DNA of 64,000 nt from Candidatus Eiseniibacteriota bacterium (GTDB taxonomy: Bacteria; Eisenbacteria; RBG-16-71-46; CAZAMP01): assembly GCA_965224245.1 (NCBI GenBank), contig OZ245046.1:4912484-4976483 (forward strand), written 5' to 3'. The notes beneath the pieces were generated by a model, which had not been told where the DNA came from, ran no database searches, and saw only the letters and a program-made list of their open reading frames with translations. Positions 5,239 to 48,599 of this stretch are shown here, piece after piece; the stretch's first letter is position 1, and each line of letters opens with the position of its first letter. Made by a program: the position numbers and the translations under genes.

Positions 5239-5850
5239 CTAGCCGCGCGCGGCGGCGTACAGCGATCCAACCTTGTCCCAGTTCACGACGTTCCAGAACG
5301 CCGAGATGTAGTCCGGCCGGCGATTCTGGTAGTGGAGGTAGTACGCGTGCTCCCACACGTCGAGTCCGAGGATCGGCGTGTAGCCCTGCATGTACGGCGA
5401 GTCCTGGTTGGCGGTCGAGAACACCTCGAGCTTGCCGTTCTTCACCGCGAGCCAGGCCCAGCCGCTGCCGAATCGGGTGGCGCCGGTCTTCGAGAACGCG
5501 TCCTTGAAGGCGTCGAAGCCACCGAGCTCGGAGCCGATCGCCTTGCCGAGATCGCCCGACGGCGCGCCGCCGCCGCTCGGTCCCATGATCTGCCAGAAGA
5601 GTGAGTGGTTGGCGTGGCCACCGCCGTTGTTGATGACGGCCTGTCGAGCCGAATCCGGGATGTCGCCGATGCCACGCAGCACGTCCTCGATCGACTTCGA
5701 CGGGAAGGCGGAGTGGCCCTCGAGCGCCTTGTTGAGGTTCGTGACGTAGGCGTTGTGGTGCTTGCCGTGATGGATCTCCATCGTGCGGGCGTCGATGTGC
5801 GGCTCCAGCGCGTCGTGCGCGTACGGGAGGTCGGGCAACGTGAAGGCCAT
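5239..5850 (-). CDS. sodA: Superoxide dismutase, Fe/Mn family.
   Basis: Motifs '[14 protein letters not shown]', '[29 protein letters not shown]' and 'FGSGWAWL'. Full length 203 aa. Whether it is Mn or Fe type is not resolvable by eye. Confidence 0.95.
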
Positions 5851-7136: not shown

Positions 7137-9164
7137 TCACTCGGCCAGGACGACGCGCACCGCCCGCACGCCAGGGCTCCCTCGCACGAAGTACACGCCA
7201 GGAGCCACCCGGTCCCCGCGGTCGTTGCGCGCATCCCAGTCGAACCGTCCGCCCAGCCCCGGCACGGTCGATCGCACGACGCGGCCGGTCGCGTCCAGAA
7301 CCTGAACCGATCGAGGCGGTCCGGTGACGCCGTCCAGGACCACGCTCACCCGCTGCGTGAACGGATTGGGGACCGCACGACGCGTCACCGACCGTTCATC
7401 GACCACGGGCCCCTCCACGTCGAGCGACGACAGGAGGTCGTCGATCACCCCGGTCATCAACAGGGGGTCGTAATCACAGGATCGGTACGCGACCCTCCCG
7501 TCGGGGTCGATGATGAAGTCACGCGGGAACGGAGATGCGCAGTTGTGAATCAGGTAGTCGACGTACGTCGCCGAGGTCCCCGCCGGATCGGCCAGGATCG
7601 GGAACGTCACGCCGAACTGATCGGCGAAGTCGGCCGCGATCGCGGCCGACTCCCCCCGGTCGATGCCGAGCACCACCACGCCGTCGGCCTGGTACGTCTG
7701 CCAGATCGTCACCTCGAGGTCCGAAAACTCCGGACCGCACACCGGTCACCAGGATGCGAAGAAGGCGAGAAGGACCACCCGGCCTTCGTAGTCGGACAGC
7801 GTGTACGTGAGTCCGTCGATGCCCGGCAACGAGAAGTCGGGAGCGTCGTCCCCGACCTGGAGCGTCGTCGGGTTCCCCTCGAGATAGACCTGCGTCATCG
7901 GCTCGTCGGGGTCGTTGCTGGCCAGGCGCAGCGACGCCACGTAGTCCTCGCCGCCCGGGGAGGTGAACGTGACCACCACGTCGCGGGATTCGTCTTCGCC
8001 GAGCATGAAGGGGCCCGTGTCCACGCTGAACGCCCCGGCGCCGGACCCCCCGAGGTTCACACCCGTGACGTCGAGCACGCCCACGCCCGTGTTCGTCACC
8101 GTGACGATCGCGTCGGCGCTCTCGCCGGCGGGTACGTCGTCGGCGACGAACTCGTCGGGAGTGGCGCGAATGTCCGGCGACACCTCGGCGCCGTACTCGT
8201 ACACACGGAACGTGGACCAGTCGGCGACGTAGATTCGCGTGCCCTCGGCCACGAGACCCATGGCACGATAGGGCGTGTCCTCCCAGCCGACTCGCGTCGG
8301 AACGGACGGGATCGAGACGTCGACGACCGAGAGCTCCTCCCACTCGGCCACGTACAGAAGGGATCCCGAGAGATGGAGGTTGAACGCCGTCAGCGACGTG
8401 TCGTAGGTGCCGACCAGGACCGGCAGATCCGGATTCGAGAGGTCGTACACGTCGGCGCCGTCGGTCCCGACCGCCGTGGCCAGCAGTCCGCCGTCGGACG
8501 TGATGTCCTGCGCGACGCCGGATCCCGCGACGGATGCGAGGTGAACGGGGCTCCCGGGCGCGGACACGTCGAGGACCGACACGCCGCCCGCGCCGTCGGC
8601 CACGTAGAGCCGATCGTCCACCAGCACCATGCGGTAGGCGTTCTGGACGCCGTCCGTCACGACGCTCACCGGCGCCGGGTTCGCCGGATCGGTCAGGTCG
8701 AGCACCTGGATCCCGGCGTCGTGTCGCGCCGCGTACAGCGTCGTACCGTTTCGCAACACGCCCTCGATCTGGATGCCCGGAAGATCGATCGTGTCCACGA
8801 CGTGGGGATTCGTGGGATCCGAGAGATCGTACGTGCGGAGACCGTTCTCACGGGCTCCGCAGTAGCCGTGCGCGGCGCCCAGCGCCATTCCGTAGTATGC
8901 GACGGTCTGATCCGATCCGACGAGGCTCGGCGCGCCGGGATCGCCGACGTCGTAGACGCTGAGTCCCCCGGTTCCGATCACGTAGACCGTGTCGCCGACC
9001 TTCTCCGCGTCGAGGTAGTGCACGAAGAACGTCGGCCTGAACGCGCCGAGGAGCTCGACGCCGTCGCTGGCCTCGGCCCCGGTGCCGAGCAACGCCAGTG
9101 CACCGCCGACGAGGACGCGCGGCACGATCCGGCCCGCGCCCGGGCTGTTCGAACGGGATGACAT
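7137..9164 (-). CDS. Candidate selenoprotein. It reads as a secreted LVIVD beta-propeller, then a TlpA-like thioredoxin with a UxxC motif, then a FlgD-Ig/T9SS-type C-terminal domain. It is annotated as two ORFs (7746..9449 and 7137..7742) separated by an in-frame TGA at 7746-7748.
   Basis: Signal peptide '[32 protein letters not shown]', starting at ATG 9164 after the RBS 'GGGAGGGAG'. LVIVD-like repeats are present. The Trx fold starts '[32 protein letters not shown]', reaches the TGA, and continues in the same frame as 'PVCGPEF...[10 protein letters not shown]...[11 protein letters not shown]'. The TGA is therefore at the first Cys of the WCxxC motif. The C-terminus has 'NPF...[12 protein letters not shown]...[21 protein letters not shown]'. 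The alternative reading is a nonsense pseudogene. Confidence 0.5.
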
Positions 9165-9378
9165 GGCTCCCTCCCGGTTCCGGCCGGATCTCGGACTGCG
9201 CGACGCGGCGAGGCCGTGATCGCGCTGGACGGGGCGAGGCGCTCGGGAATCGAGAAGATCGTACCACGCGGAGGGGGCCAGATCGTCCGGGCCCATGCAC
9301 AACGGCCTCGGCCGAGGCGACCGAGAAGCGCTCTCGTTCCGAGGCCGCCGATGGAGACGATTCACCGCCGAACGGCGA

Positions 9379-11655
9379 TCACGGGAGCCGCACGACCCGT
9401 CGCACGTCCGTGCGTGCGCCCGTGTCGAGGCGGACGACGTACACCCCACTCGCGATCACGCGGCCCCTGTCGTCGAGACCGTCCCACGCGAGGTCGTGTC
9501 GCCCGGCATCGAGTCCTCCGGCGAGCAGCGTCCGGACCGACCGCCCGCGCACGTCGAAGACGCCCACCCTTACGTCGGTCGGCCACTCGAGCGTGAACGC
9601 GAGCGTCGTGGAGCTGCGGAACGGGTTCGGTCGGCTCACGAGACGCGTCACGACGTCGCTCACCGGCGGGGTGTCGAGCGCGCCGCCGAGCGCGTGAGCC
9701 GGCAGCACGACGATGTCCCCCGGATAGCTGCCGTTCGTCAGCATCACGGTCTCCTCGTCGGCCGCGATCTGCGACAGCACGAGCCCGGGCTCGGTGTACT
9801 CGCCCACGAGCACCGGGGCGATCGGGTCGCTCCAGTCGATCACGTAGAGCGTGCCCGATGCGGTGCCGGCGTAGACGATCTCCCCGGCGCCGGTGGGCGC
9901 GCCTCCGTCGGAGGACACGACGGCCAGCGTGCGTGCGCCCACGTCGATGGAGGCGACCTCGGAGCCGACCGCGAAGTCGTATCGCACGACGCGTGCGCCC
10001 GGCTCCACCGAGCTGCCTAGGTACACCTGTTCGGGAACCGAGGAGGGCGCGACCGACTCGACTCCCGTCAGCGGCGTCACGTGGTCGATCACCGGCGCGT
10101 CCGGATCGCCGACGTCCCAGCGCGCGGTCTGGCTGGTCGTCGCGACGACGGCGAACGTGCCGTCCACGTGAAACTCGTTCACCGCGTTGGGGGTCGCACC
10201 GAAGCCGCGGTCGAAGGGGGCCTCGGGCGTCGAGACGTCGACCACGTAGAACCCGAGCGGCGACGAGCTCGAGCGCACGACGCGGCTGCCGTCCGGCGTC
10301 GCGTCCACGCTGGAGCTGAAGCCGGGAAGCGATCCGACGATCGCCGGGTTCGCGGGGTCGGTGAAGTCGACGATGTCGAAGCCCGCGAGCCCGCCGGCCA
10401 CCGCGAGCGATCGCTCGGTTGGCCCCCCCGCCGCGACGCGCAAGAGCTCGTGCTTGTAGTGGCGGAGCCGCTGGACGGCGGCCGCGCCCGTCTCACCCAG
10501 AAGGACCGGGAGGCACGGATTGATCACGTCGTACACGCGGATCCGCCCTCCGGACATCCCGCCTGAGTCGGACATGAGCATGTGGTTGCCCATCGGGCGG
10601 GTGAGCGCCGCCGGCACCACGAACTCGTCGGCGAGGCGAGCGAGGGGGCTCGGCGTCATACCGTTGCCGTGTCGATACAGCACGAGCTCCGGGCTCGTTC
10701 CACCGCGCCGGGTGAGGAAGCGATCGCCGTGCGAGGAGACGCGACGGACACCGTGGTGGCCGCGCAGGGTTCCAATCCGTTCGAGAGCCTCCGACAGCAC
10801 GTGAACGAGATCCTCTCCGGCGGCGATCGTGGACGTCCCCGGGGCCCGCGCCACGGCCACGATGTTCGTCAGGTCGATGTTCTCGCCGAGCGGGATCGGA
10901 GGCGACGTTCCGTACCGCTTGACGCCGGCGCCGGTCGCGAGAACGATCTCGTGGTTACCGTTCAGGGCGACGTCGCGCACCGTGCCGGGGACGGTTGTGA
11001 CGAGGCTCGTCGGGGGCTCCATCGTGAGATCCGAGACGACGAGCACGGCGGACCCGACGAAGGCGGCAGTGCCGGCGTGGGCATCGTGCGCGAGGGTCGC
11101 CTCCTCCGCAAACGGGATGGCGGCCGACGTGAGGCTCGGGCCGCACGGCGAGGTGAGACGCACGACGACGGCGCCCAGGCCGTACTGCACGACGAGGTCG
11201 TTCCCGGACAGAGAGATCGACCCGACGTCGCCCACGGGGCCGAGGTCGATCGTCTCGACGAGGGTCGGGTTCTCGGGATCGGAGAGGTCGTAGCGCCTCA
11301 CGACGTCCATACCGGCGACCCAGAGGCACGTGCCGTCGGGCGAGGCCACGACGTCGAACGCCTCGTCGCCGAAGCTCCCGATCTGCTCGCCGTCGTCGGC
11401 ATGGATGTCGACCCCGAAGTCCCCGACCGCCACGTAGGTGTAGGAGTCCACCGAGACGGCGCCGTACTCGTCCTCCTCTCCGAGCCGTTCCCCGGCCGGG
11501 CGCCGCCCGTCCAGGTCGATCCGGCGGATTCGCCGCGCGTACTCCTCGTAGTCGATGGCGTCGCCCGTGGCGCCGGCCGGCGCGGGCAACGAGATCGTGG
11601 CCGCCGCGGCCACGATGAGGGTCAGGGAAAGAACGAGATGGGACTCGAGACGCAT
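9379..11655 (-). CDS. Secreted LVIVD-repeat beta-propeller protein with a FlgD-Ig/T9SS-type C-terminal domain.
   Basis: Signal peptide '[29 protein letters not shown]'. Repeated '[12 protein letters not shown] / [13 protein letters not shown] / [10 protein letters not shown] / [13 protein letters not shown]' motifs. C-terminal '[15 protein letters not shown]...[17 protein letters not shown]...[22 protein letters not shown]'. Confidence 0.7.
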
Positions 11656-11757: not shown

Positions 11758-14700
11758 CTACGGCAACGCCACCAGCCGCCAGAGCTGGCGCGGGACCGCT
11801 CCCGTCACCGCGAGGATGGGCGGATACCGATCTCCGTCGTCCACGTAGTCGAGGGACCGCCCGACCCCGCCCCCGCTCGTGCGGAGCCGGTACAGGTAGT
11901 CGCCGCCCAGCTCCACCGCGGTCAGCGTCCAGTACTGGTCCGCATCGTCGGCCACATCGACGATCGTGGCGGGCGCGCCGCCGTCTCCCCCGTCGATGAC
12001 GCGGTCGACCCCGAGCACCACCGGTGAGAGGCGCAGGAAGCCGGTCGTGCCGACCGGACCGAGCCGCCACCGGGACGCGTCCGAGTCGTCGGTTCCCATG
12101 AACAGAAGCGGCGGCTCGATCGCGCTCACGGTCAGGCGCTCTCCGGACACCAGCGTGGCGTTCGTGATCCGGTACACGTCGCCGGCGTCGAGATCCTCGC
12201 GCGGGCCATACTCGATCACGTAGCCGTTCATGTCGTCGGTGTCGAGCTGGGTGTCGTTCCAGCCGCTCGTGCGGAGCTCGAGGAAGTCGGAGTCCCCGAC
12301 GACGTCATTCGGACGACCGAACGCCCAGGCCGTGAACGCGAACGGCTCGCCGGTGACCCACCGCCACCCGCCGTCGGGCTCGGCGGAATCGACGTCGCCG
12401 TCCACCTGGTAGCCGCCGATCCACACCGGCTTCGTCGCGAACGGCACGAGCGCGTCCACGAACGCGTTCTCGTCGGCGTCGGCGATGCATGCGAGATAGC
12501 CGCGCAGGCCCAGGTGTGTCCGGGCGGCCGCGTCGGCCCGTGCGGCGGGCCAGGTGATGTCGAGCTGCTCGACGAGCTCGTAGTAGTGACCGTTGGCCCC
12601 GTTCAGGACGACGTTGCCGAAGAGCACCTCGGTCGTGAAGGTCCAGTTCACGCCGGCGATCAGCGGATTGCCGGCGAGGTCGGTGACGGAGCCCGTCACC
12701 ATCGCCGTGTACGAGCGCCCGCCTCCGAGCGGAGCCGCCGGCGTGAAGGTCGCGCTCGCGCCGACGGCGTCGACGGTGCCCGCCACCGCGCCGTCGGGGC
12801 CGGTCACGAAGAACGACGAGCTGGTCACCGTGGCCGGGTCGATCGGCTCGTCGAACGTGACGCTGACCGTCGCCGACACCGGCACGTCCACGGCGCCGTT
12901 CGGGGGATCGAAGTCGATGGCGAGGGGGCCGCGATTCGTCTCGAACGTCCATACGGCGCCCGCGGCGATCGGGCTGCCGTCGAGGTCGGTGATGTCGGTC
13001 GTCAGCGATGCCTCGTGGACCGACGCGCTCTCGAGCGGCGCGGACGGCACGAAGGTCGCCGTGGGTCCGCTGACGTTCAGCGAGCCGTCCACGTCCACGC
13101 CGTCCCGGCGCACGCGGAACGACGTGGGCGTCACGCTGCCCGGATTCACGTCCTCGGAGAACGTGGCCACGACCGAGGCGCTCTCGTCCACGTCGGTGGC
13201 GCCGTCGGCCGGGGACGTCTCGATGACGCGCGGCGGATCGGGGTCGAGCGTCGTGAAGCCGGCGTCGAACGCCACCAGCGGATTCCCCGCGAGATCCTGG
13301 ATGCCGGTCGTGAGCTCGACGGTGTACGCGGTGAAGCCGTCGAGGTCACCGGTCGGCGTGAACGTGGTCGTGCTCCCGACCGTGGAGCGCGTGCCGTCGA
13401 CCGGCGGCGGGCCGCCGGTCGCGCGCACCCGGAACGTGCCGGCGGTCACGCTCCCCACGTCCTCGGAGTACGTGACCGTGATCACCGCGTCGAGGGGAAC
13501 GTCCACGGCGCCGTCGGCGGGGTCGATGGTGAGGACGGTTGGGCTCTCGGTGTCGACGGGCACCGTGGTGAAGCTCCAGATCACGTCGGTCTGCAGGGGG
13601 TTGCCCGCGAGGTCGGTGATGGCGGTGGTCAGGGTCGCCGTGTACGGGATGTCGCCGTCGAGCGGCGCCAGCGGCGTGAACGTGACGGCATCTCCGAACG
13701 TGGACACGGCCACGTCTCCGGCCACCGAGCCGCGCGGACCGGTCAGCATGACGCTTCGCCCGTCGACGGTGGCGGGGTCGATCTCCTCGGAGAACGTCGC
13801 CGACACGACGACGTCGAGGGGCACGTCCACCGCGCCGTCGACCGGAAACCGCTCCAGCACACCGGGGGCCTCGACGTCGGCGACCGTGAACGTGGACGTG
13901 AAGACCGCGGCGAGCGGGTTGCCGGCGAGGTCCTCGATGCCCGTCTCCAGACGAACGGTGTACGTGGTCGCGCTCGCCAGCGCCGCCGTCGGATCGAACG
14001 TGGCCATGTTCCCGGACGCGGACACGCTGCCGGCCACGGTCCCCGTGGGTCCTTCGAGCGAGAACGTCGACGGGGTCACCGATGCTGGATCCACGTCCTC
14101 GGAGAACGTCGCCGTGATCGAGACGCCCGGGGCCTGATCCACCGCGCCGTCGGCCGGTGAGATGCCGGTGACGCTCGGCGGCGTCACGTCGGCGATCGTG
14201 AACGACCAGACGACCTCCTCGGCAAGCGGGTTGCCGACGACGTCGGTCACGGCGCGGGTGATGCGGGCGGTGTACGCCGTCTCGCCGGCGAGGTCGGCCG
14301 AGGGTGTGAACGTGGCCGTGTTTCCGGCGGCCGCCGCGGCGCCCCCGACGGCGCCGCCGGGACCGGTGAGCGTGAACGACGCCGGCGTCACCGTGGACGC
14401 GTCGATCTCCTCGGAGAACGACGCCCGCACGACGACGTCGGGGGCCACGTCCACGGCCTCGTCGGCCGGCTCGGTGCTGGTGACGACCGGCGGCTCGGTA
14501 TCGACGAACGCGGTGGTGAAGGACCACTCGACGCCGGCCTCGAGCGGGTTGCCGGCGAGATCGCGGATGCCGGTGGTGATGCGCGCCGTGTACGCAGTCG
14601 AGCCGGTCAGCGGCGCCGACGGCGTGAGCTGCGCACTGGAGCCGCTCGCCTCGACGACGCCGGCGACGTCGCCGCCCGGGCCCGAGAGCGTGAACGTCTC

Positions 14701-17616
14701 GGCCGTCGCGCTGGCCGGATCGATCGGCTCGGAGAAGCTCGCGCTGACCACCACGCCGGGCGAGACGTCCACCGCCTCGTCGGCCGGCGACGTGGCCGTG
14801 ACGCGGGGAGGCTCGACGTCGCTCGTCGTGAACGACCACGTGAACTCGGCGGCGAGCGGGTTGCCGGCGAGGTCGGTGATGCCGGTGGTGAGCCGAGCGG
14901 TGTACGTGGTCGCGCTGGCCAGGTCGTCCGTGGGGTCGAAGGCGATGGCGCGGCCCGCGGCGTTGACGCCACCGGTCACCGCGCCGCCGGGGCCGGTGAC
15001 GCGGAACGTCGACTCGGTCGCCGTCGCGGGATCGATGTCCTCGGAGAGCTCCGCGCTCACGATCACGTCCAGCGGCACGCCGGTGGCGCCGCTCGCCGGG
15101 AGCGTGGTCACGACCGCGGGGCCCTCGACGTCGACCGTCGTGAACGACCAGGTGACGTCGGCGGCGAGCGGGTTGCCGGCGAGGTCGGTGATGCCGGTGG
15201 TGAGCCGCGCGGTGTATGTCGCGTCGCTGGCCAGGGGTCCGAACGCCTGGAACGTCACGGCGCTGCCGCTGGCGTCGACGCTGCCGGCAACGGCACCGCC
15301 GGGGCCGATCAGCGTGAACGTGGACGTGGTCACCGACGCGGGGTCGACGTCCTCGCTGAACGCGGCCCCCACGACGACGTCGAGCGGCACGTCGATCGCG
15401 CCGTCGAGCGGCTGCGTCGCGGTGACCGAGGGGGGCACGACGTCGGCGGTGGTGAAGCTCCACTCGACGTCCGACGCGAGCGGGTTGCCCGCGAGGTCGG
15501 CGATGCCGGTGGTGAGCCGCGCGGTGTACGTCGTCGAGCTGGCGAGCGTCGCGGTGGGCGCGAACGACGCGCTGCTGCCGCCGGCTCCCACCATGCCCGT
15601 CACGGATCCCGCGGGACCCTGCAGCGTGAACGTGGTCGCGTCGACCGTGCCGGGGTCGATCACCTCGGAGAACGCCACGCCGATGGCAATGTCGGGGGGG
15701 ACGTCGGTCGCGCCGTCGGCGGGGGTCGTCCGCGTGACGGTGGGCGGATCGACGTCGCTGAGCGCGGTCGTGACCGACCAGGTGACGTCGGCGCCGAGCG
15801 GGTTGCCGGCAAGGTCGGTGATGCCGGTCGTGACGCGCGCGGTGTACGCCGTCTCTCCGTCGAGAAGGGCGCCGGGCGTGAACGTCGCGGCGGCCCCCGC
15901 CGCGTCGATCGTCCCGGCGACCGCGCCGCCGGGTCCGGTGAGCGTGAACGTCGACGGAGTGACGCTGAGCGGATCGACGTCCTCGGAGAACGTGGCCACG
16001 AACACGGCGCCCGGCGAGACGTCCACGGCGCCGTCCTCCGGCGACGTGTCGACGACCACCGGGGGGTCGACGTCGACGATCGGCGCGGTCGTGAACGACC
16101 AGACGACGGGCTGCGCGAGGGCGAACCCGGTGAGGCTCCGGACCGACGTCGTCAGCCGCGCGGTGTAGGTGGACTCGCCCGCCAGCGGCACCGACGGCGT
16201 GAACGTGGCGACGTCCCCGCCGGCGCCGGTTCCTCCGGACACCGCGCCCGCGGGGCCGGTGAGCGTGAACGACGCACCGGTCACCGACGTCGGATCGACC
16301 GCCGCGCTGAACGTCGCCCGGACGACCGCGTCCCACGCGACGCCGGTGTCGCCGGCGTCCGGATCGGTGGCGAGCACGTCGAACGCCGGGCGCGCCGCGA
16401 CCTCGATCACCGAGGAGTCGAAGCGGCTGGGGTCGGCGTTGGACGTGGCGGTCGCGACGGTGGCCCCGACGCTCACACCGGTGACGTTGCCGCTGACGTC
16501 GACCCGGGCCACGCTCGGGTTCCCGGTCGACCACGTGAGGGCCCGATCGACGCCGGGCGATGCATCCACGACCGCGGCCAGGGGCGCGACCTGACCGACG
16601 ACGATCCGGAGCGTGTCCGGCGACACCCGGACGCCGCGCACGCCCTCGTCACGCGGGCTCGTCGTGATGTCGTCCGAGCAGCTGGACCCGATCACGACGG
16701 CGATCACGGAGCCGACCGCGATCGCGACCAGCGGTAGTCGCGCGAGGGGGTGGCGCGCACCGGCCGATGCCGGGCGGGGCGACGGATGCCGGGACGATGC
16801 GTCACGGGACGATGGGCGACGGGGCGATGCGTGACCGGGCCGGTGGTGGCGCTGGCGGGTGCGCCGGGTGTGTCCACGGCGAGAGAGCGTCCACTGCACG
16901 GGTGTCCACCTCGGTGTCTCGGCCACCGCCCCGAGACGGAGGCAGACGTCCGGGGGTTCCGACGAGGGCGGTGTGGCGGCGGCCGTGGCTGTCTCGCGAG
17001 CGTCTACGGCTCGCCCATCGGACCGTTCGGCGCGAGAGATGGTCACATTATACGTGTGGGATGCCAAGTCCCGGGCGCGCCGGGGGCGCTGGCGGGTGAA
17101 TCGCCGGGAAGTGGTTGCAAGAGACCGGCGGAGAGACGGCACGGGCCGGATCGACGGCGCGTCCGGGACGCCGGCGGGGGCCCGGGATGCGGTGGGGCCC
17201 CGGGACGCCGGCGGGGCCCGGGATGCGGTGGGGCCCCGGGACGCCGGCGGGGCCCGGGACGCCGGCGGGGCCCGGGACGTCGGCGGGGCCCGCGACGTCG
17301 GCGGGGCCCGGGACGTCGGCGGGGCCCGCGACGTCGGCGAGGCCCGCGACGTCGGCAGGGCGCGCGACGTCGGCAGGGCCGAGGCGTCGGCAGGGCCGAG
17401 GCGTCGGCAGGGCCGAGGCGTCGGCAGGGCCGAGGCGTCAGCGGGGATAGGGACGTCTGCGGGCCCGGGAGCTCGACCCGCCGTGGCACCCCGCTGGGGC
17501 CTCAAGTCGCTGCAATAGTACACTTTACACTTGATTCCGGACTCGGTTTGGGTTACGCTCCCAGCATCGATCAGCCCCCGATCGACGTCTCCGATCGCTC
17601 CCCGGGTCCACGCCAC
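11758..17616 (-). CDS. Giant secreted adhesin-like protein with about 15-17 tandem Ig-like (Big/SbsA-type) domains, a C-type lectin-like domain and a C-terminal beta-rich domain. Its true start is probably near 16.8 kb.
   Basis: About 95-aa repeats of the form '...TFTLTGPGGAVAGxVxAxGxxATFTPSAPLAxxTxYTARLTTGITDLAGNPLAxDVxWSFTT'. CTLD-like segment 'NGHYYELVEQ...YLACIADADENAFV...WIGGYQ...GGWRWVTGEPFAFTAWAFGRPND...WNDTQLDTDDMNGYVIEYGP'. A signal-peptide-like segment 'RLPLVAIAVGSVIAVVIGSSCSDD' lies about 290 codons into the maximal ORF. The region upstream of it is a Pro/Thr/Arg low-complexity translation of a DNA tandem repeat, so the real start is uncertain. Confidence 0.65.
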   Translation of the reverse strand: MAWTRGAIGDVDRGLIDAGSVTQTESGIKCKVYYCSDLRPQRGATAGRAPGPADVPIPADASALPTPRPCRRLGPADASALPTSRALPTSRASPTSRAPPTSRAPPTSRAPPTSRAPPASRAPPASRGPTASRAPPASRGPTASRAPAGVPDAPSIRPVPSLRRSLATTSRRFTRQRPRRARDLASHTYNVTISRAERSDGRAVDARETATAAATPPSSEPPDVCLRLGAVAETPRWTPVQWTLSRRGHTRRTRQRHHRPGHASPRRPSSRDASSRHPSPRPASAGARHPLARLPLVAIAVGSVIAVVIGSSCSDDITTSPRDEGVRGVRVSPDTLRIVVGQVAPLAAVVDASPGVDRALTWSTGNPSVARVDVSGNVTGVSVGATVATATSNADPSRFDSSVIEVAARPAFDVLATDPDAGDTGVAWDAVVRATFSAAVDPTSVTGASFTLTGPAGAVSGGTGAGGDVATFTPSVPLAGESTYTARLTTSVRSLTGFALAQPVVWSFTTAPIVDVDPPVVVDTSPEDGAVDVSPGAVFVATFSEDVDPLSVTPSTFTLTGPGGAVAGTIDAAGAAATFTPGALLDGETAYTARVTTGITDLAGNPLGADVTWSVTTALSDVDPPTVTRTTPADGATDVPPDIAIGVAFSEVIDPGTVDATTFTLQGPAGSVTGMVGAGGSSASFAPTATLASSTTYTARLTTGIADLAGNPLASDVEWSFTTADVVPPSVTATQPLDGAIDVPLDVVVGAAFSEDVDPASVTTSTFTLIGPGGAVAGSVDASGSAVTFQAFGPLASDATYTARLTTGITDLAGNPLAADVTWSFTTVDVEGPAVVTTLPASGATGVPLDVIVSAELSEDIDPATATESTFRVTGPGGAVTGGVNAAGRAIAFDPTDDLASATTYTARLTTGITDLAGNPLAAEFTWSFTTSDVEPPRVTATSPADEAVDVSPGVVVSASFSEPIDPASATAETFTLSGPGGDVAGVVEASGSSAQLTPSAPLTGSTAYTARITTGIRDLAGNPLEAGVEWSFTTAFVDTEPPVVTSTEPADEAVDVAPDVVVRASFSEEIDASTVTPASFTLTGPGGAVGGAAAAAGNTATFTPSADLAGETAYTARITRAVTDVVGNPLAEEVVWSFTIADVTPPSVTGISPADGAVDQAPGVSITATFSEDVDPASVTPSTFSLEGPTGTVAGSVSASGNMATFDPTAALASATTYTVRLETGIEDLAGNPLAAVFTSTFTVADVEAPGVLERFPVDGAVDVPLDVVVSATFSEEIDPATVDGRSVMLTGPRGSVAGDVAVSTFGDAVTFTPLAPLDGDIPYTATLTTAITDLAGNPLQTDVIWSFTTVPVDTESPTVLTIDPADGAVDVPLDAVITVTYSEDVGSVTAGTFRVRATGGPPPVDGTRSTVGSTTTFTPTGDLDGFTAYTVELTTGIQDLAGNPLVAFDAGFTTLDPDPPRVIETSPADGATDVDESASVVATFSEDVNPGSVTPTSFRVRRDGVDVDGSLNVSGPTATFVPSAPLESASVHEASLTTDITDLDGSPIAAGAVWTFETNRGPLAIDFDPPNGAVDVPVSATVSVTFDEPIDPATVTSSSFFVTGPDGAVAGTVDAVGASATFTPAAPLGGGRSYTAMVTGSVTDLAGNPLIAGVNWTFTTEVLFGNVVLNGANGHYYELVEQLDITWPAARADAAARTHLGLRGYLACIADADENAFVDALVPFATKPVWIGGYQVDGDVDSAEPDGGWRWVTGEPFAFTAWAFGRPNDVVGDSDFLELRTSGWNDTQLDTDDMNGYVIEYGPREDLDAGDVYRITNATLVSGERLTVSAIEPPLLFMGTDDSDASRWRLGPVGTTGFLRLSPVVLGVDRVIDGGDGGAPATIVDVADDADQYWTLTAVELGGDYLYRLRTSGGGVGRSLDYVDDGDRYPPILAVTGAVPRQLWRLVALP
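17160..17455. repeat. Tandem repeat array: about ten 18-bp units 'cgggacg(c/t)cggcggggcc', then 4 x 17-bp 'gaggcgtcggcagggcc'.
   Basis: Read directly from the sequence. It lies in the 5' extension or upstream region of the giant minus-strand gene and translates to PTSRAP repeats in-frame. Confidence 0.8.
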
Positions 17617-19571: not shown

Positions 19572-20693
19572 TCAGTCCCGGAGGTAGTGGCAAGTGTACC
19601 CGTTCGGGTTCTTCACGAGGTAGTCCTGGTGGAAGGCCTCGGCGTCGTACCATTTCGAGGCGGCGACGATCTCGGTGACGATCGGGTCGCGCCACTTGCC
19701 CGACCCGTCCACCTGGGCCTTCACGCGCTCGGCCGCGTCCCGCTGGGCATCGCTGTGGTAGAAGATCGCCGAGCGGTACTGCGAGCCGCGGTCGTTCCCC
19801 TGCCGGTTCATCGTGGTCGGGTCGTGCATGCGGAAGAACCACCCGAGAAGCTCCTCGTACGACAGGACGTTCGGATCGAACACGATCCGCACCGACTCGG
19901 CGTGGCCGCTCGAGCCCCTCTTGACGTCCTCGTACGTCGCGTTCTCGACGTGTCCGCCGGTGTAGCCCACCTGCGTGTCGAGGACACCGGGGATCTCGCG
20001 AATGATCTGCTCCATGCCCCAGAAGCACCCGCCCGCCAGCGTGGCGACCTCGGTGTTCTCCGCCATCATGCCCACCTTTTCGTCCGCGCCCCGGGGCGCG
20101 TCACCGCCCTTTCCGAACAGCGGGAGAAAGTCTCCGTAGCCGGCGCCGGCCAGATCGTCCACCGGGACGAACCGGAGCGATGCCGAGTTGATGCAGTACC
20201 GCAGCCCCGTCGGCTCGGGTCCGTCGGGGAACACGTGACCGAGGTGCGAGTCGGCCATCTTCGAACGCACCTCGACGCGCCGCATGCCCAGTCGCGTGTC
20301 GGTGCGCTCGACGACGAGGTCCGGGATCAGCGGCCGCGTGAAGCTCGGCCAGCCCGTGCCCGACTCGAACTTGTCCAGCGAGCTGAACAACGGCTCGCCC
20401 GAGACGACGTCGACGTAGATCCCGTCAGCGTGATTATCCCAGAACTCGTTCTGGAACGGGCGTTCGGTGCCGTCCTCCTGCGTGACCTCGTACTGCGTCG
20501 AGCTGAGCGCCGCGCGGAGCTCGGCGTCGGCGGGCTTCTGGAACGACTCCCACGGACCCGACGCGTCGATCGCCACCGGGTTGGGGTCGGTGCTCTCGGG
20601 CTTGGGCGCCCGCGTGCGGGCCATGCTCTGCCAGGTGAAGCCGAAGACGGCCGCCGTGATCACGGCTGCCGAGAGAAATGCTCCGAGTCTCAT
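19572..20693 (-). CDS. msrAB: Exported bifunctional peptide methionine sulfoxide reductase, MsrB-MsrA fusion.
   Basis: MsrB part: '[47 protein letters not shown]...[24 protein letters not shown]'. MsrA part: '[14 protein letters not shown]...[12 protein letters not shown]...[11 protein letters not shown]'. Likely start '[18 protein letters not shown]' (signal/anchor) at 20693. The listed ORF extends to 20861. Confidence 0.9.
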
Positions 20694-20940
20694 TGGTGAC
20701 CTCCAGGTCGGGTCCGGCGGGAGGCCGGAAACGGCTCGGGACGCCGGCGCCGAGGCGGCGGGTCGCGAGCCCTGAGAATACCGACACTGGGATGTTCGCT
20801 TCCATGGGTGGGGTCCCCGGACCGGGCGCTTTTGAGCGACTTTCCACCGGGGCGTGATCAATGCGTGAGAGATCCCCCGGGAGACGGCACGTTACGGCCG
20901 TCTCGAGGGGGCTGCCGGGGGTTCGGGCCGGATCACGCCG

Positions 20941-21886: not shown

Positions 21887-23323
21887 CTATCGAATCCGGA
21901 CCACGCGCGCGACCGAGGTCCCCGCGACGCCGGCGGACCCCGTCGCCGTCAGTCGAACGTGGTAAACACCGGACGACACGATCCGACCGGCATCGTCGGC
22001 GCCGCTCCACTCGATCCGGTGGACGCCGCCGGAGTGGTATCCGGAGGCCAGCGACGCGACGCGCCGACCGGAGACGTCGATCACGTCGACCTGCACCGAT
22101 CCGGGCACCGCCAGATCGAACGTCAGCGCGAACGGTCCACGCGAGACGGTGGCCGACCCCGGGGCGAGGCGCAGCCGGGGCACCATGGGACGCCCCGCGA
22201 GGTCGGGTGTGGAGACCACGTCGCGCGGGATCAGAACGAAGCCGCGGGGCGCACCGAAGCCGGGACCCATGTGACCGTCCCCCACGATCCACCCTAAGTT
22301 GTTGATTCCCAGTGCGCGGTCCAGCACGAAACCGCTCGACGGGTCGATGGCATCGTTCAGGTCCCGCATTCCGCGGACCGGATCCCAGGCGAACGCGCGC
22401 CAGTCTCCGGTCACACCGCTCATCGCGGAGCCCACGACGACCTCGGCGTCGTTGATGGCGGCGGGGTTCACCCTCAGCGAGGCGCCCCCGTCGAGTCCCG
22501 GAAGGAACGTGAAGCCGGCCGCCTCGGTCCAGGTGAACGCGTGGAAGGCCGAGCCGTTCCAGCCCGAGCCCAGCACCACGCCGTTCTCGTTGATCCCGGC
22601 CGCGCTGCTGGTCCCGGCACCGCTGGGGCTCAGGAGCTCGTGCAGCAGGACGGCGTCACCGGTCGGGACGTCGTAGACGAACGCCTCGCTGTCGCCGGCC
22701 GACCAGCGGATGTTGCCCACCGCGACGCCGGCGTCGTTCACGCGGAGCAGCTCCCGCGACGCGAGCACGTCGATCCCTCGCGTGCCGCTCTCGGCGTCCC
22801 AGACGATCGGCGTTCGGTTGACGCCGTCGGAGTCGCTCCCCGACCCCTTCACGTGCCCGACGACCAGTCCCGTGTCGTTGAGTCCGTGGACGTACACGGT
22901 CGTGAAGCCGCCGCCGAGGCCCCCGATGAAGGTGGTTTCCCCGGTGGTCAGGTCGTGGAGGGCGGCGTCGCCGGCCACCTGGTCGAGGTCGTTGATGTCC
23001 TCGATCCAGATCAGGGGCGTCGCCGACTTGCCCTCGGCCTCGGTCCACTGGAAGCCCGCGTAGAAGCTCCCGGAGGTCGAGGTACCGCACGCGCGGTTCG
23101 AGTCGTTGATGTCCCAGAGGTAGCACTCGGGGATCGAGCCGTCGAAGGCCTCGACGACGATCAGGTCGTATTCGACGTCGGCGTGGGCCGCAGGGACGAT
23201 CGGCCCCGGGCCCGACGACCACGCGATGGCGGTGGTGACGGCGACGGCCCGGATCAGCGTGGGGACGGCCGCGCCCGCGCGCGGTCGGTGTCCGTGGCCC
23301 CGCCGGCGGTCGGACTGGAGCAT
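21887..23323 (-). CDS. Secreted HAF-family extracellular repeat protein with a FlgD-Ig/T9SS-type C-terminal domain.
   Basis: Repeated 'GINDxGxVVG'-type segments (GLNDTGLVVGHVKG, RVNDAGVAVGNI, GINENGVVLGSGW, AINDAEVVVGSA, GINNLGWIVGDG). C-terminal 'VQVDVIDVSGRRVASLASG...IEWSGADDAGRIVSSGVYHVRL'. Confidence 0.65.
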   Translation of the reverse strand: MLQSDRRRGHGHRPRAGAAVPTLIRAVAVTTAIAWSSGPGPIVPAAHADVEYDLIVVEAFDGSIPECYLWDINDSNRACGTSTSGSFYAGFQWTEAEGKSATPLIWIEDINDLDQVAGDAALHDLTTGETTFIGGLGGGFTTVYVHGLNDTGLVVGHVKGSGSDSDGVNRTPIVWDAESGTRGIDVLASRELLRVNDAGVAVGNIRWSAGDSEAFVYDVPTGDAVLLHELLSPSGAGTSSAAGINENGVVLGSGWNGSAFHAFTWTEAAGFTFLPGLDGGASLRVNPAAINDAEVVVGSAMSGVTGDWRAFAWDPVRGMRDLNDAIDPSSGFVLDRALGINNLGWIVGDGHMGPGFGAPRGFVLIPRDVVSTPDLAGRPMVPRLRLAPGSATVSRGPFALTFDLAVPGSVQVDVIDVSGRRVASLASGYHSGGVHRIEWSGADDAGRIVSSGVYHVRLTATGSAGVAGTSVARVVRIR

Positions 23324-39430: not shown

Positions 39431-39742
39431 GTGAATTGGAACTCACTCCCCTGTGCGTTGATGGGTTGGACCTTTCGAGGCATTTGCGGCACGCAGAGAG
39501 CGGTACGCATGCTGCTCGCGCTCTTCATCGCAGGGTGGATCGCTGTCGACGCAGCGGCGTTACCAGCGGTCCCGAAGCCGACTTCCGATCACGTGCAGAT
39601 CATGAGCGACGGAGAGCCCTGGGATGACCCGGAGGAACATCGCTTCGGTGTAGGTGCTCTGCGTGAGGAGGTGCCATCCACTGGCCGCCGGTTGATACCA
39701 GCTGCCGACGACACCGAGATGAGCCAATCGAATGAACGCTGA
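39431..39742 (+). CDS. Hypothetical small protein upstream of the sigma54 activator, overlapping its start.
   Basis: ORF in a locally lower-GC region. One hydrophobic segment 'MLLALFIAGWIAVDAAALPA'. Weak support. Confidence 0.3.
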   Translation: MNWNSLPCALMGWTFRGICGTQRAVRMLLALFIAGWIAVDAAALPAVPKPTSDHVQIMSDGEPWDDPEEHRFGVGALREEVPSTGRRLIPAADDTEMSQSNER

Positions 39743-41939
39743 CCTCATTTCCATCGTTGCGTCTCGACATTCGCACTCGCCCACGGTCGCGACAGCTCTC
39801 GGGTGCGATAGACCGGGCGCAAGTCTCGCTGTTCAACACTCTCGCTTGATCGATCTGGTGCGGAAGCTACGAGATACCGGCGACATTGCCACCGCACAGG
39901 ACATCGCTGAACTCGTTCTTGAAACGAACGTAGCTACGCCGAAGCAGCGTGCAGATTGGTACATCGAACGATCGAAGCTGCGACGACGAGACGGCGACCT
40001 CTTCGGGGCCAGTGAGGAAGCAACGAAAGCTGCAGTTCTATTCGAGATGGAAGCGCTACCGGAGAGGACGTGTGAAGCCAACATCCTTCGTGGCGTTTGC
40101 TATGCCGCGATGGGGCAGTGGTCGTTGGCCGAGCAGATTCTGGCTAGAACCATGCACGCCGCGATCAAACTCAAAGTCGATTGGCTGACGAAGAGTGCCA
40201 GACTCAATCTGGCCATCACGCTCTACATGCGCGGTAACATCTACGAAGCGTTTGTGCATCATCGAGCCTTGCTGGCCGGACCGATGTCGGACAGACGAGA
40301 AGAGAACCTTCGAGTCGGACTTGCTCGCACAACTCGACTGCTCGGTTACTCAGCATCTGCGTTGAGGCAATGTCGTGCTCTCCTGGGCCGAAGGAAGTTC
40401 AAGGAGCAACGACGAACCGTCGCGCTGGCCAACGAAGTCCTCGGAGACTCCCTGATGGACTCCGGCCGACTCGCCCCTGCTATCCGCTCATTCAAAAAGT
40501 CCCTCAAGCTCGGCCTCCAAATCGCCCCCGAAGGCGACCTCGTCTGCGAAGCCTACCGCCGCCTCGCCGAAGCCCACCTCTCCGCCGGCGACCTCAAGAA
40601 GGCCCAGGCCGCCATCGACGCCGGCTACCCCCTCTGCGAGAAGACCCACGACGACCGTGAACGGGCCGCCTACCTCCGCGTCATGGGCGACCTCGCCCTG
40701 GTCAACGGCGAGACCGACGAGTCCGACAAGCGCTACGCCCAGTCGCTCCAGATCAGCGAATCGAGAGGCTTCCAGCTCGAACGCGCCATGACCCTCGAGA
40801 CCGCCGGCCGCGCCCACGTCGAGACGGGTCGCCCGGACACCGGTGTCGAGTTCCTCAAGCAGGCCGAGACCCTCTACGAGGAGATGCGCATCCCCCGGGG
40901 CGTCGCCCGCCTGCGCCGCGGCGAGACGCTCTTCGCCCGCCCGCTCCCCGATCCGAAGAGGACCCGGCGCACCGCCACGAGGAGCGTCACCGACGAGGAA
41001 GCCCGCTACTGGGAACGCTTCGGCATCTACACCCGCGACCCCACGTTGCTGCGCGCGCTCGACGAGGTGCGGGACGCCGCGCCGAGCCACCTCCCGATCC
41101 TGATCCTGGGCGAGAGCGGCGTGGGCAAGGAGCTCGTCGCCGCCGCGACCCACGCGCTCAGCGGCCGCGGCGGATCCCTCATCGACATCAACTGCCCGGC
41201 GATCCCCGAGACGATGCTGGAGAGCGAGCTGTTCGGGAGCGAGCGCGGTGCGTTCACTGGCGCCGAGACACGAGCGGGGCTCGTGGCCGAGGCGGATCGG
41301 GGCAGCCTCTTCCTGGACGAGATCGGCGACATGCCGAAGCCCCTGCAGGCGAAGCTCCTCCGGTTCCTGGAGACGTCGACGTATCGCCCGGTGGGCGGAC
41401 GGAAGTCGAGACGGGTGGACGTCCGCTTCATCAGCGCGACGAACGTGGATCTCGGACGGCGCGTCGACGACGGCACGTTCCGGAGCGATCTCTATCACCG
41501 CATCGCCGGACTCGTGGTCGAGATCCCGTCACTGCGACGGCGGCCGGACGACGTCGAGCTCCTGGCCCGACTGTTCCTGGCCCGCGGTCTCGGCGAGGAC
41601 GCCACGGTGGCGCCGACACTCGATCCGGCGGTGGTGCATCGCCTTCGCGAGTTCCCCTGGCGAGGCAACGTCCGCGAGCTGAAGAACACGATGGACGCGA
41701 CCGCGGTCAGGCTCCGAGGGCGGCACCGGGTCTCGATCGACCTCCTCCCCGCGTGGCTCCGCCGCCTCGATGGCAGCAAGACGTTTCGCGACATGACGAT
41801 CGACGAGGTCCTGCTGGAGATCGAACGCCGCGACGGGAACCTCCTCCAGACCGCGCGAGACCTCGGCATCAATCGATCGTCGCTCTACCGCCGCCTGGAG
41901 CGCGCCGGGATCGACGTGGCCCGGCTCCGCACGCACTGA
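39732..41939 (+). CDS. Sigma-54-dependent transcriptional activator (NtrC-family AAA+ enhancer-binding protein) with an N-terminal TPR-like sensor domain and a C-terminal Fis-type HTH.
   Basis: Walker A 'LILGESGVGKELVA'. GAFTGA loop 'ESELFGSERGAFTGAETR'. Walker B 'GSLFLDEIGDM'. Also 'GNVRELKNTMD'. C-terminal HTH 'GNLLQTARDLGINRSSLYRRL'. The N-terminal 380 aa are helical repeats. Confidence 0.85.
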   Translation: MNADLISIVASRHSHSPTVATALGCDRPGASLAVQHSRLIDLVRKLRDTGDIATAQDIAELVLETNVATPKQRADWYIERSKLRRRDGDLFGASEEATKAAVLFEMEALPERTCEANILRGVCYAAMGQWSLAEQILARTMHAAIKLKVDWLTKSARLNLAITLYMRGNIYEAFVHHRALLAGPMSDRREENLRVGLARTTRLLGYSASALRQCRALLGRRKFKEQRRTVALANEVLGDSLMDSGRLAPAIRSFKKSLKLGLQIAPEGDLVCEAYRRLAEAHLSAGDLKKAQAAIDAGYPLCEKTHDDRERAAYLRVMGDLALVNGETDESDKRYAQSLQISESRGFQLERAMTLETAGRAHVETGRPDTGVEFLKQAETLYEEMRIPRGVARLRRGETLFARPLPDPKRTRRTATRSVTDEEARYWERFGIYTRDPTLLRALDEVRDAAPSHLPILILGESGVGKELVAAATHALSGRGGSLIDINCPAIPETMLESELFGSERGAFTGAETRAGLVAEADRGSLFLDEIGDMPKPLQAKLLRFLETSTYRPVGGRKSRRVDVRFISATNVDLGRRVDDGTFRSDLYHRIAGLVVEIPSLRRRPDDVELLARLFLARGLGEDATVAPTLDPAVVHRLREFPWRGNVRELKNTMDATAVRLRGRHRVSIDLLPAWLRRLDGSKTFRDMTIDEVLLEIERRDGNLLQTARDLGINRSSLYRRLERAGIDVARLRTH

Positions 41940-41941
41940 CG

Positions 41942-42060
41942 CCCCCGACGCCCGCCCTCGAGCTCCCCGACATCCGCCTCCATTGCCCGACACTCGCCTC
42001 GAACACCCCGACACCCGCCTCGATTCCCCGACGCCCGCCTCGAACACCCCCGACACAACT
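41942..42060. repeat. Imperfect tandem repeat of a ~21-bp unit 'ccccgacac(c/t)cgcctcga(a/t)nn', about 5 copies.
   Basis: 'cccccgacgcccgccctcgagct ccccgacatccgcctccattg cccgacactcgcctcgaaca ccccgacacccgcctcgattc cccgacgcccgcctcgaaca cccccgacacaactgg'. It lies just downstream of the sigma54 activator and upstream of the DUF4157 gene. Confidence 0.7.
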
Positions 42061-42185
42061 GGCCCGCCGATCCCGTAAACTCGACGTACCCGGACGACGT
42101 CACCGCCGCCGTGCGCCGCGGATGCCGGCGACGCTCGCCCCCGGCTCGACACCGCCAAAACGCCGACGAGGCGACGGGAGGGGTC

Positions 42186-42842
42186 ATGGCAGGACCCGAG
42201 CTTCGACTGCCCACCTGGGAGCAGTTCCTCATCAACTACGGCAGCGCCACCGCATCCTGGGGCGCGCGGCTCACGAGCGATCAGAAGAAGCTCGCGAAGG
42301 AGATCTTCGGCGACTCGATCGACCTCACCCGGGTTCGGGTCCGGACCGGAGCGCTGCCCGGCATGGGCGGCGCCGCCGCGATGGTGCTCGGCAACACGGT
42401 CATCGTGGACCCGAAGTACGCGCTGAAGGGCGGGCTCCTGGCCCACGAGCTGACCCACGTCTGGCAGTACCAGACGACCGGCTCCAAGTACCTGAGCAAC
42501 GCGACCGTCCACCGATCCTATCGCGTGAAGATCGTCCGGGGCCGGCCCATCGGCGAGTACAACGCGGAGCAGCAGGCCACGATCGTCGAGAACTACTACT
42601 ACTGGCGCTACCTCAAGACGGTGTCGTCCGACTTCCGCGCCGACAATCCCAACATCAGGGGGACGATGAAGGAGGTCGATCGCCTGATGAACGAGATCCG
42701 TGGGCGGCGACCGCAGGCCGAGAGCACGCTCCAGCTCGATCTGAACCGGGCGATGACCGGAGCCGACTCGAGCTCGCTCCCGTCTCCGGCGGATCTGAGC
42801 GACTCGCCGAACCCGGTCTATCAGCTGGAGCTTCGGTTCTAG
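42186..42842 (+). CDS. DUF4157 (HExxH zinc-metallopeptidase-like) domain protein.
   Basis: 'FGDSIDLTRVRVRTGALPGMGGAAAMVLGNTVIVDPKYALKGGLLAHELTHVWQYQ' matches the DUF4157 pattern (FG.DLSRVRVHTG...A.T.GN.I.F......GR.LLAHELTHVVQ). Start ATG at 42186 preceded by 'GGGAGGGG'. Confidence 0.75.
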   Translation: MAGPELRLPTWEQFLINYGSATASWGARLTSDQKKLAKEIFGDSIDLTRVRVRTGALPGMGGAAAMVLGNTVIVDPKYALKGGLLAHELTHVWQYQTTGSKYLSNATVHRSYRVKIVRGRPIGEYNAEQQATIVENYYYWRYLKTVSSDFRADNPNIRGTMKEVDRLMNEIRGRRPQAESTLQLDLNRAMTGADSSSLPSPADLSDSPNPVYQLELRF

Positions 42843-48545: not shown

Positions 48546-48599
48546 AATAAAAAGGGGAGCCCGACGGTGGATTCTCGGTGAGCGCTAGTCGGGGTCTCC
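48546..48599 (-). terminator. Rho-independent terminator candidate at the 3' end of the CHAT gene.
   Basis: On the minus strand the stem is 'GACCCCGAC'...'GTCGGGCTC' with one mismatch, followed by 'CCCTTTTTATT'. Confidence 0.45.

Follow-up and report, generated by a model that had tools for sequence, protein, structure and literature searches.

A predicted exported selenoprotein with an LVIVD propeller, Ig-like domains and a selenocysteine-containing thioredoxin domain in a Candidatus Eiseniibacteriota bacterium

The closest described relatives of the protein reported here are the Prx-like 1 selenoproteins of Zhang and Gladyshev (PF00578, with a UxxC motif), which were covered in the Global Ocean Sampling (GOS) survey (PMC2398784) and in a review (PMC13188914) and are also named Prx-like thiol:disulfide oxidoreductase or thiol-disulfide isomerase-like proteins in the literature. 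The substitution of selenocysteine (Sec) for Cys in TlpA/Prx-like domains is well known, and the 2008 GOS survey had already recorded the catalytic domain considered here as a predicted selenoprotein. In this study we analyzed a stretch of 64,000 nucleotides, hereafter called the window, from contig OZ245046.1 (positions 4,912,484 to 4,976,483 of the forward strand; assembly GCA_965224245.1) of a Candidatus Eiseniibacteriota bacterium, in which an earlier note had proposed a Sec-containing secreted oxidoreductase. All positions given below refer to the window. We report that the gene at 7137..9164 (minus strand) is very probably a genuine selenoprotein gene, which would encode a single exported protein of 675 residues with Sec at codon 473, and that the in-frame TGA at this codon is almost certainly a real Sec codon.

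The two open reading frames (ORFs) 7746..9449 and 7137..7742 are located on the minus strand in one frame, and the TGA at 7748..7746 is their sole separator; frames and translation thus agreed with the earlier note on this point. When read through the Sec-UGA, the predicted gene is complete, with 675 codons followed by a TGA stop at 7139..7137, and the translation across the junction yields the active-site motif W-U-P-V-C. The likely start is the ATG at 9164, in agreement with the database's own shortened product of 472 amino acids (P0001), and a putative Shine-Dalgarno sequence, GGGAGGGAG, was read 2 nt upstream of it (9167..9175, minus strand). The GC content at third codon positions (GC3) is 0.86-0.87 on either side of the TGA. 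The 202 downstream codons are free of stops and frameshifts, with a GC3 of 0.86 equal to the upstream value, and the part encoded by them is 30-48% identical to relatives and retains every invariant residue. Elsewhere in the window TGA serves as an ordinary stop, including at the end of the selenoprotein gene itself, so that a genome-wide reassignment of TGA is not the explanation for the read-through frame.

The earlier note had further claimed that the TGA replaces the first Cys of a TlpA/ResA-type W-C-x-x-C motif and thereby occupies a typical Sec position. Both statements held up when the read-through product, written with Cys at codon 473, was scanned against Pfam and NCBIfam. The Pfam matches to AhpC-TSA (PF00578; 83.9 bits, cut-off 26, E 1e-23, aa 437-560) and to Redoxin (PF08534; 62 bits, cut-off 26.6) both span the TGA, and in ResA/TlpA-like chains of the PDB (E 1e-15 to 5e-19) the first Cys of W-C-x-x-C stands opposite to it. 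These Pfam and PDB matches define a TlpA/ResA-like thioredoxin-fold domain of aa 433-566 (7467..7868, minus strand), and the first CxxC position in TlpA/Prx-like folds is a long-known Sec class.

A protein search with the read-through product, in which the protein's own match was the 472-aa product, retrieved at least 12 relatives of 447-543 aa with 30-54% identity, all of which end at ...AFFA[S/T/N]W or an equivalent sequence. In the DNA of four loci (L001-L004; from ENA, JGI, and one NCBI Marinimicrobia metagenome-assembled genome [MAG]) a TGA was present at the same codon in every case, followed by P-[V/A]-C-[G/A]-P-E-F-S-D-L and then by about 200 further in-frame codons. We also scanned one genome per species with a degenerate DNA pattern for A-F-F-A-x-W-TGA-P-x-C; the source genome itself was not among these species representatives. 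Of the 76 pattern loci obtained, 64 belong to the LVIVD-propeller Sec family, 6 are different, small TlpA-like genes in which a TGA likewise lies in frame, and 6 are chance occurrences in short ORFs. The 64 family loci are derived from about 55 species-representative assemblies and at least 8 phylum-level groups, with members in Gemmatimonadota, Neomarinimicrobiota, Zixiibacteriota, Krumholzibacteriota, Eisenbacteria, Calditrichota, Fidelibacterota, Fibrobacteraceae, Ignavibacteria, and Glassbacteria as well as in other MAGs. All 64 have the TGA at the codon corresponding to codon 473 (7746..7748, minus strand), with an open frame of about 465-580 aa before it and of 165-310 aa after it and no disruption elsewhere, and nine assemblies hold two paralogs with the TGA in each. 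The two comparisons suggested in the earlier note, whether orthologs carry Cys or TGA at this codon and whether they are disrupted at varied positions, therefore gave TGA in 64 loci alongside Cys-containing homologs (see below), and no disruption other than the shared TGA.

The six smaller TlpA-like genes carry the in-frame TGA at the first Cys, with frames open on both sides and the motifs U-P-H-C, U-P-Y/F-C, and U-P-P-C. Three are from Dehalococcoidia/Chloroflexota (L048:2588-2617, L051:357-386, L070:7962-7991), two from Nitrospirae (L062:7099-7128, L069:2881-2910), and one from Eisenbacteria (L035:6227-6256). All six probably represent additional selenoproteins that have escaped annotation.

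An exhaustive search with the post-TGA part returned mostly fragments of about 200 aa that begin just past the Sec position. It also returned seven full-length proteins of 568-685 aa with propeller, Ig-like, and thioredoxin (Trx) parts that have Cys at the position aligned to the TGA (P0141, P0153, P0223, P0245, P0246, P0252, P0258); most of them are without the C-terminal tail. The motif of these Cys-forms is W-C-P-x-C, as in FASWCPVCPSQVTDVE and FATWCPICTPIMTDLE. The heptapeptide after the active site varies among them (PSQVTDV, TPIMTDL, IPIIVDM, and others), whereas the Sec-forms keep G/A-P-E-F/L-S-D-L/I. As the Cys-forms do not conserve this peptide, the G/A-P-E-F/L-S-D motif is dictated by the RNA rather than by the protein. 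A further Cys-form, P0118 (332 aa), has no propeller and consists of a signal peptide, a Trx domain, and a tail resembling type IX secretion system (T9SS) tails; it retains C-A-A-C-G-P-E-L-S-D-L-E after the active site and looks like a recent Sec-to-Cys conversion in which the peptide encoded by the selenocysteine insertion sequence (SECIS) has not yet been lost.

The RNA element in question is a hairpin, GGUCCG-GAGUUUU-CGGACC (7718..7736, minus strand), which we assign as a bacterial SECIS (bSECIS) on the basis of synonymous-site fixation, pairing in sister subfamilies, and the bSECIS criteria. It was found where the earlier note had placed it, 12 nt after the UGA when counted from the U, that is, 9 nt past the A. 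With the U of UGA numbered 0, the stem comprises the pairs G12-C30 to G17-C25 plus G18.U24, and the loop is A19-G20-U21-U22-U23. The published bSECIS criteria (PMC13188914) comprise a loop of 3-9 nt, a stem of 4-16 bp, a UGA-to-loop distance of 16-37 nt, and a minimum free energy of at most -7.5 kcal/mol, with a G in the first two loop positions and the loop pattern N1-G-[G|U]-N-N2. The window hairpin lies within all of these limits, with the loop AGUUU of 5 nt, a stem of 6-7 bp, G at loop position 2, and an energy of -10.5 kcal/mol. The SECIS spacing proposed in the earlier note was likewise supported by folding, the UGA-to-loop distance of 16 nt being at the short end of the allowed range.

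Among the 65 distinct sequences in which conservation of the hairpin was analyzed, the Pro, Val, and Cys codons that directly follow the UGA are free to vary at their third positions, and loop position +23 is likewise unconstrained, whereas +14 is U in 63/65, +17 is G in 64/65, +20 and +26 are G in 65/65, and +29 is C in 63/65 sequences. When 42 conserved degenerate codon columns were considered (from 310 codons in 52 members), the third-position entropy was at least 0.81 bit in all but four. These four are codons +5, +6, +8, and +9, which lie in the hairpin and show an entropy of 0-0.24 bit (G 52/52, G 52/52, G 52/52, and C 50/52, respectively). The window hairpin is identical to the family consensus, and in one family member, L030, the stem is kept via a 1-nt shift with the loop GGUC. 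Three other TlpA-like Sec subfamilies, represented by the six smaller genes from Chloroflexota (L048/L051/L070), Nitrospirae (L062/L069), and Eisenbacteria (L035), form a hairpin in the same register (pairs 13-29 to 18-24, loop 19-23). Their stems differ (GGCGGG/CCCGCC, CUGCGG/CCGCAG, and AAACGG/CCGUUU), as do their loops (AGUUG, AGGCU, and CGUCG), and 35/36 pair cells are paired with 2-3 pair types per position, compared to 14/36 in the six chance pattern loci. Judged from these sequence comparisons, the hairpin is a selected RNA element.

The protein that would result from Sec insertion is modular. A signal-peptide-like N-terminus of aa 1-32 (9069..9164, minus strand), recognized by inspection of the translation, consists of a basic n-region, a core, and A-E-A followed by S; it resembles a signal peptide of the Sec export pathway, with putative cleavage behind A-E-A. 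The region of about aa 40-325 (8190..9047, minus strand; boundaries approximate) is an LVIVD-repeat beta-propeller by Pfam (PF08309, 66.8 bits vs a cut-off of 20.2), an assignment that rests on sequence, and has weak NCBIfam matches to choice_anch_B and beta_rpt_yvtn. It is followed by an immunoglobulin (Ig)-like domain of the choice-of-anchor D or HYDIN-VesB type (aa 329-430; 7875..8180, minus strand), which ends in a conserved SNDPDE motif and is supported by NCBIfam choice_anch_D (E 7e-11, 42.6 bits, slightly under the cut-off of 45) and the Pfam HYDIN_VesB Ig model (E 1e-4); the same domains are present in homologs. Downstream of the Trx domain, aa 597-675 (7140..7376, minus strand) form a C-terminal Ig-like domain homologous to T9SS type A C-terminal domains (CTDs). 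This homology was deduced from sub-threshold matches, FlgD_ig (E 1e-4, 22.7 bits, cut-off 27) and the NCBIfam PorZ C-terminal region (5e-8), and from the tails of relatives. Of 58 aligned tails, 36 match Por_Secre_tail (PF18962; best E 5e-13), 41 match FlgD_ig, and 12 match CHU_C, and some relatives have an extra Ig domain or a dockerin in place of the tail. In the earlier note the protein had been described as an exported LVIVD propeller with a T9SS-type tail. The propeller part of this description stands, but the tail is only weakly detectable in the window protein itself, though it is matched in 36/58 relatives. From the signal-peptide-like N-terminus and the homology of the CTD to T9SS sorting domains, export and T9SS-type sorting are likely.

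The gene directly upstream, 9379..11655 (minus strand), has a Por_Secre_tail-type tail and passes the cut-off of the TIGR04183 T9SS sorting domain (25.9 bits vs 23). Several further window genes end in similar FlgD_ig/Por_Secre_tail-type tails, and the density of such secreted-looking proteins, which besides 9379-11655 include 21887-23323 (minus strand), 37821-39107 (plus strand, with LVIVD repeats), 46282-48414 (minus strand), and 60300-63170 (plus strand), is unusual. Genes for the T9SS machinery (PorK/L/M/N, SprA, PorU/V) were not seen among the window genes scanned.

Several observations weigh against the assignment as an exported selenoprotein. The window contains no selA, selB, or selD; SelA, SelB, and SelD of E. 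coli gave no tblastn match in the window or in any of the retrieved loci, and ARAGORN runs on the window and on 60 loci yielded no tRNA-Sec. Neighbor-gene clustering over 65 loci revealed no conserved operon partner, an electron donor for a surface-exposed reductase is not evident, and the CTD of the window protein reaches no curated T9SS threshold and has no Por_Secre_tail match in Pfam or NCBIfam. The hairpin taken by itself is unremarkable in a window with 69% GC: its fold z-score is 0.34 (66-nt stretch), about 2.8% of the TGA trinucleotides of the window precede a perfect hairpin of at least 6 bp at the same spacing, and Rfam, searched over the entire window, gave nothing at the gathering threshold, with no more than noise near the hairpin when E values up to 10 were admitted. 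Its significance therefore comes only from the comparison with relatives, and there the stem is near-invariant within the LVIVD family, so that covariation within the family is lacking and the compensatory evidence stems from the sister subfamilies. The missing Sec genes are also what a relic would predict, that is, a member of a true Sec family in an organism that has lost the Sec machinery, reads TGA as a stop, and makes only the 472-residue propeller/Ig protein with the downstream part silent. The lack of any other Sec candidate in the window, where a scan for coding-like TGA codons gave antisense artefacts only, would fit such a relic as well. The window, however, represents about 1% of a genome of 6.45 Mb, so that sel genes missing there carry no weight. 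A relic is unlikely because the downstream frame is intact, with its undiminished GC3, its 30-48% identity to relatives, and all invariant residues kept, and because the hairpin is still the same as the family consensus.

The remaining explanations deny Sec to the gene altogether. A division into two genes would fit the 201-aa downstream ORF that gene callers start at GTG 7742, but it would cut the thioredoxin fold between the first beta-alpha unit and the active-site helix, in the middle of the Pfam match that crosses the junction. Moreover, the P-V-C that would precede the earliest possible start after the TGA is invariant in the family, and the downstream starts called for relatives are inconsistent (query positions 2-71). 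Against read-through of the TGA by a near-cognate or suppressor tRNA, inserting for instance Trp or Cys, stands the conserved hairpin, whose G-U loop and SECIS spacing are the signature of SelB-dependent recoding. We therefore regard either of these, two genes or non-Sec read-through, as very unlikely. A single base change suffices to convert an active-site TGC or TGT into TGA, and annotation pipelines handle the gene as truncated, as would be expected if the gene were a pseudogene in decay or carried an error from sequencing or assembly. Yet 64 independent loci from different phyla share this TGA, and nine genomes have it in both of their paralogs, without other disruptions; these loci are not copies of one contaminant, being 30-54% identical at the protein level. 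In addition, the neighboring RNA hairpin is under selection, and the Cys-forms differ systematically in the heptapeptide that follows. The shared TGA across phyla and the hairpin constraint effectively refute a pseudogene or error, which we consider extremely improbable. The two classical indications of a selenoprotein, a Sec/Cys pair and orthologs containing the TGA, are both present, which likewise excludes a pseudogene.

For the selenoprotein interpretation favored here we propose the following mechanism. The ribosome would meet the UGA at codon 473, and the hairpin 9 nt further on, with its loop A-G-U-U-U starting 16 nt after the UGA, would recruit SelB with GTP and Sec-tRNA(Sec), so that Sec would be inserted in place of termination; we infer that this insertion actually occurs in the source organism. 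The Sec residue would then be the N-terminal nucleophile of the CxxC motif in a ResA/TlpA-type fold, giving U-P-V-C, and the Sec-Trx domain would cycle between a selenol/thiol and a selenenylsulfide state. The catalytic domain would be placed behind the signal peptide, the LVIVD propeller, and the Ig-like domain and ahead of the T9SS-type CTD. The protein's most likely site of action is the periplasm or the cell surface, and its activity is most likely that of a thiol-disulfide reductase, an isomerase, or a thiol-peroxidase-like oxidoreductase, with the propeller probably acting as a binding platform. A substrate and an electron donor are likewise what we infer such a protein to have.

Among the surrounding genes, 19572-20861 (minus strand) encodes a membrane-anchored MsrB-MsrA fusion with SelR and PMSR domains and an N-terminal hydrophobic segment, which suggests an extracytoplasmic methionine sulfoxide reductase. 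It is possibly a client of a secreted thioredoxin-like reductase; the two genes are 10 kb apart, and the link is not conserved. Oxidative-stress genes occur nearby in some cases, namely a superoxide dismutase gene (5239..5850) in the window and, in L002 and L003, genes encoding MsrA together with a second redoxin. A class II (B12-dependent) ribonucleotide reductase of 1598 aa is encoded by 26911-31707 (plus strand) and is interrupted by an intein (Intein_splicing, aa 518-782), its length leaving room for more than one insertion; among the matches listed, it shows 62-68% identity to proteins of mixed phyla, in keeping with a lineage without a close database relative. An 80-nt tRNA-Cys (GCA) predicted by ARAGORN at 28452-28531 (plus strand) is most likely a false positive, as Rfam shows no tRNA there and the site lies inside the same-strand reductase/intein coding sequence. 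The giant ORF 11758-17616 (minus strand; about 1950 aa) contains many repeats of about 95 aa with the pattern TFSE.IDP.SVT…FTL.GP.G.V.G…TFTP…Y.A.L…I.DLAGNPL and a C-terminal lectin-like region, and its product looks like a large surface adhesin-type protein. A CHAT-domain/TPR protein (48585-51563), a fragment of an extracytoplasmic function (ECF)-type sigma factor (52287-52820), and a CsgG-like lipoprotein (55626-56675) are encoded in a row on the minus strand. A second same-frame pair split by a TGA, 39732..41939 and 41940..42842 (both plus strand), was explained by an ordinary stop with a non-coding GC-rich spacer of high GC3 behind it; 39732-41939 encodes a regulator with an AAA+ ATPase core and a C-terminal helix-turn-helix, which by inspection resembles sigma-54 activators.

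For the family, every database entry that we saw breaks off or is divided at the Sec codon, and most are unnamed or hypothetical; dozens of MAGs from poorly known phyla thus under-report a selenoprotein and with it their selenium use. The near-invariant block TGA-N11-TCCGGAGTTNTCGGAC offers a simple flag for correcting these annotations. The family places a Sec redox center on a large secreted scaffold in lineages whose selenium use has hardly been examined, and it raises testable questions about the target of an extracytoplasmic Sec-thioredoxin and about its recycling. It also provides a clean example of a SECIS that constrains the protein sequence, in that the positions following the active site are fixed in the Sec-forms and free in the Cys-forms. 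Tentatively, and with somewhat more doubt than conviction, we suggest that this may be the first recognized family of T9SS-sorted, cell-surface or extracellular bacterial selenoproteins, with a propeller/Ig/Sec-thioredoxin architecture, often in two copies, across phyla related to the Fibrobacterota-Chlorobiota-Bacteroidota (FCB) group (Gemmatimonadota, Marinimicrobia, Zixibacteria, Krumholzibacteriota, Calditrichota, Fibrobacteres, and Ignavibacteria). If true, this would imply extracytoplasmic redox chemistry that is based on selenium and has no obvious electron donor, and a SECIS that dictates a fixed G/A-P-E-F/L-S-D beside the active site.

In comparison with the Prx-like 1 class, the window protein shares the Pfam domain, the UxxC motif with Sec in first position, the existence of Cys homologs, and a SECIS directly downstream. 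Reads that the GOS survey placed in Prx-like 1 (supplementary file 3 of PMC2398784) are genuinely homologous: JCVI_READ_1054303 shows 41% identity over 192 aa (E 1e-44), covers the end of the upstream Ig domain, and has the sequence U-P-V-C-S-P-E-L-S-D, a motif also present in JCVI_READ_724215. The published entries, however, are short reads or single-domain proteins, whereas the window protein is multidomain, and the domain-fusion list of PMC2398784 does not include a propeller/Ig/Sec-Trx fusion. The full-length architecture, the T9SS-type tail, the FCB-related spread, and the near-invariant SECIS were not described in the literature searched, which contained no paper joining a selenoprotein with LVIVD and, among the matches listed, none joining a selenoprotein with the T9SS. 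With the NCBIfam Sec families, ResA-like WAxxUGC (NF041054), UGC-containing TlpA, and PrxU (NF040737), the protein has in common a Sec at the redox site of a thioredoxin or peroxiredoxin fold, but its motif is W-U-P-V-C and not UGC or TxxU, and its scores are low (20.6 vs 300 and 26.3 vs 270).

The best matches among solved structures are ResA/TlpA/CcmG(DsbE) proteins (B. subtilis ResA, 1st9 and 3c71; E 1e-15 to 5e-17), which are extracytoplasmic as well. Those proteins differ in that they use Cys, comprise about 140-180 aa, are anchored in the membrane, and have CcdA or DsbD as their reductants. The ResA subfamily (NF002854) is the best NCBIfam model at 73.3 bits vs a cut-off of 170, and no NCBIfam model reaches its cut-off; the window protein is therefore not a ResA ortholog, though its fold and mechanism class are the same. 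The SECIS of E. coli fdhF has a conserved lower helix and a bulged U, neither of which was seen in the window hairpin. Like the bSECISearch model and the fdhF element, the window hairpin lies inside the coding region just past the UGA, and its loop A-G-U-U-N fits the pattern; unlike them, it combines a spacing at the short end with a short stem of 6-7 bp, and its sequence is unrelated to fdhF. Etrx1 and Etrx2 of Streptococcus pneumoniae are surface-exposed, extracytoplasmic TlpA-like reductases that pass electrons to extracellular MsrAB, and their structures (4hqs, 2yp6, 4hqz) matched with E 1.6e-13 to 4.7e-12. They rely on Cys, and as lipoproteins they belong to a Gram-positive organism. The link to Msr in the window is a loose, non-conserved synteny. 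Since Sec in place of Cys is familiar from TlpA/Prx-like domains, our finding refines the field and does not overturn it.

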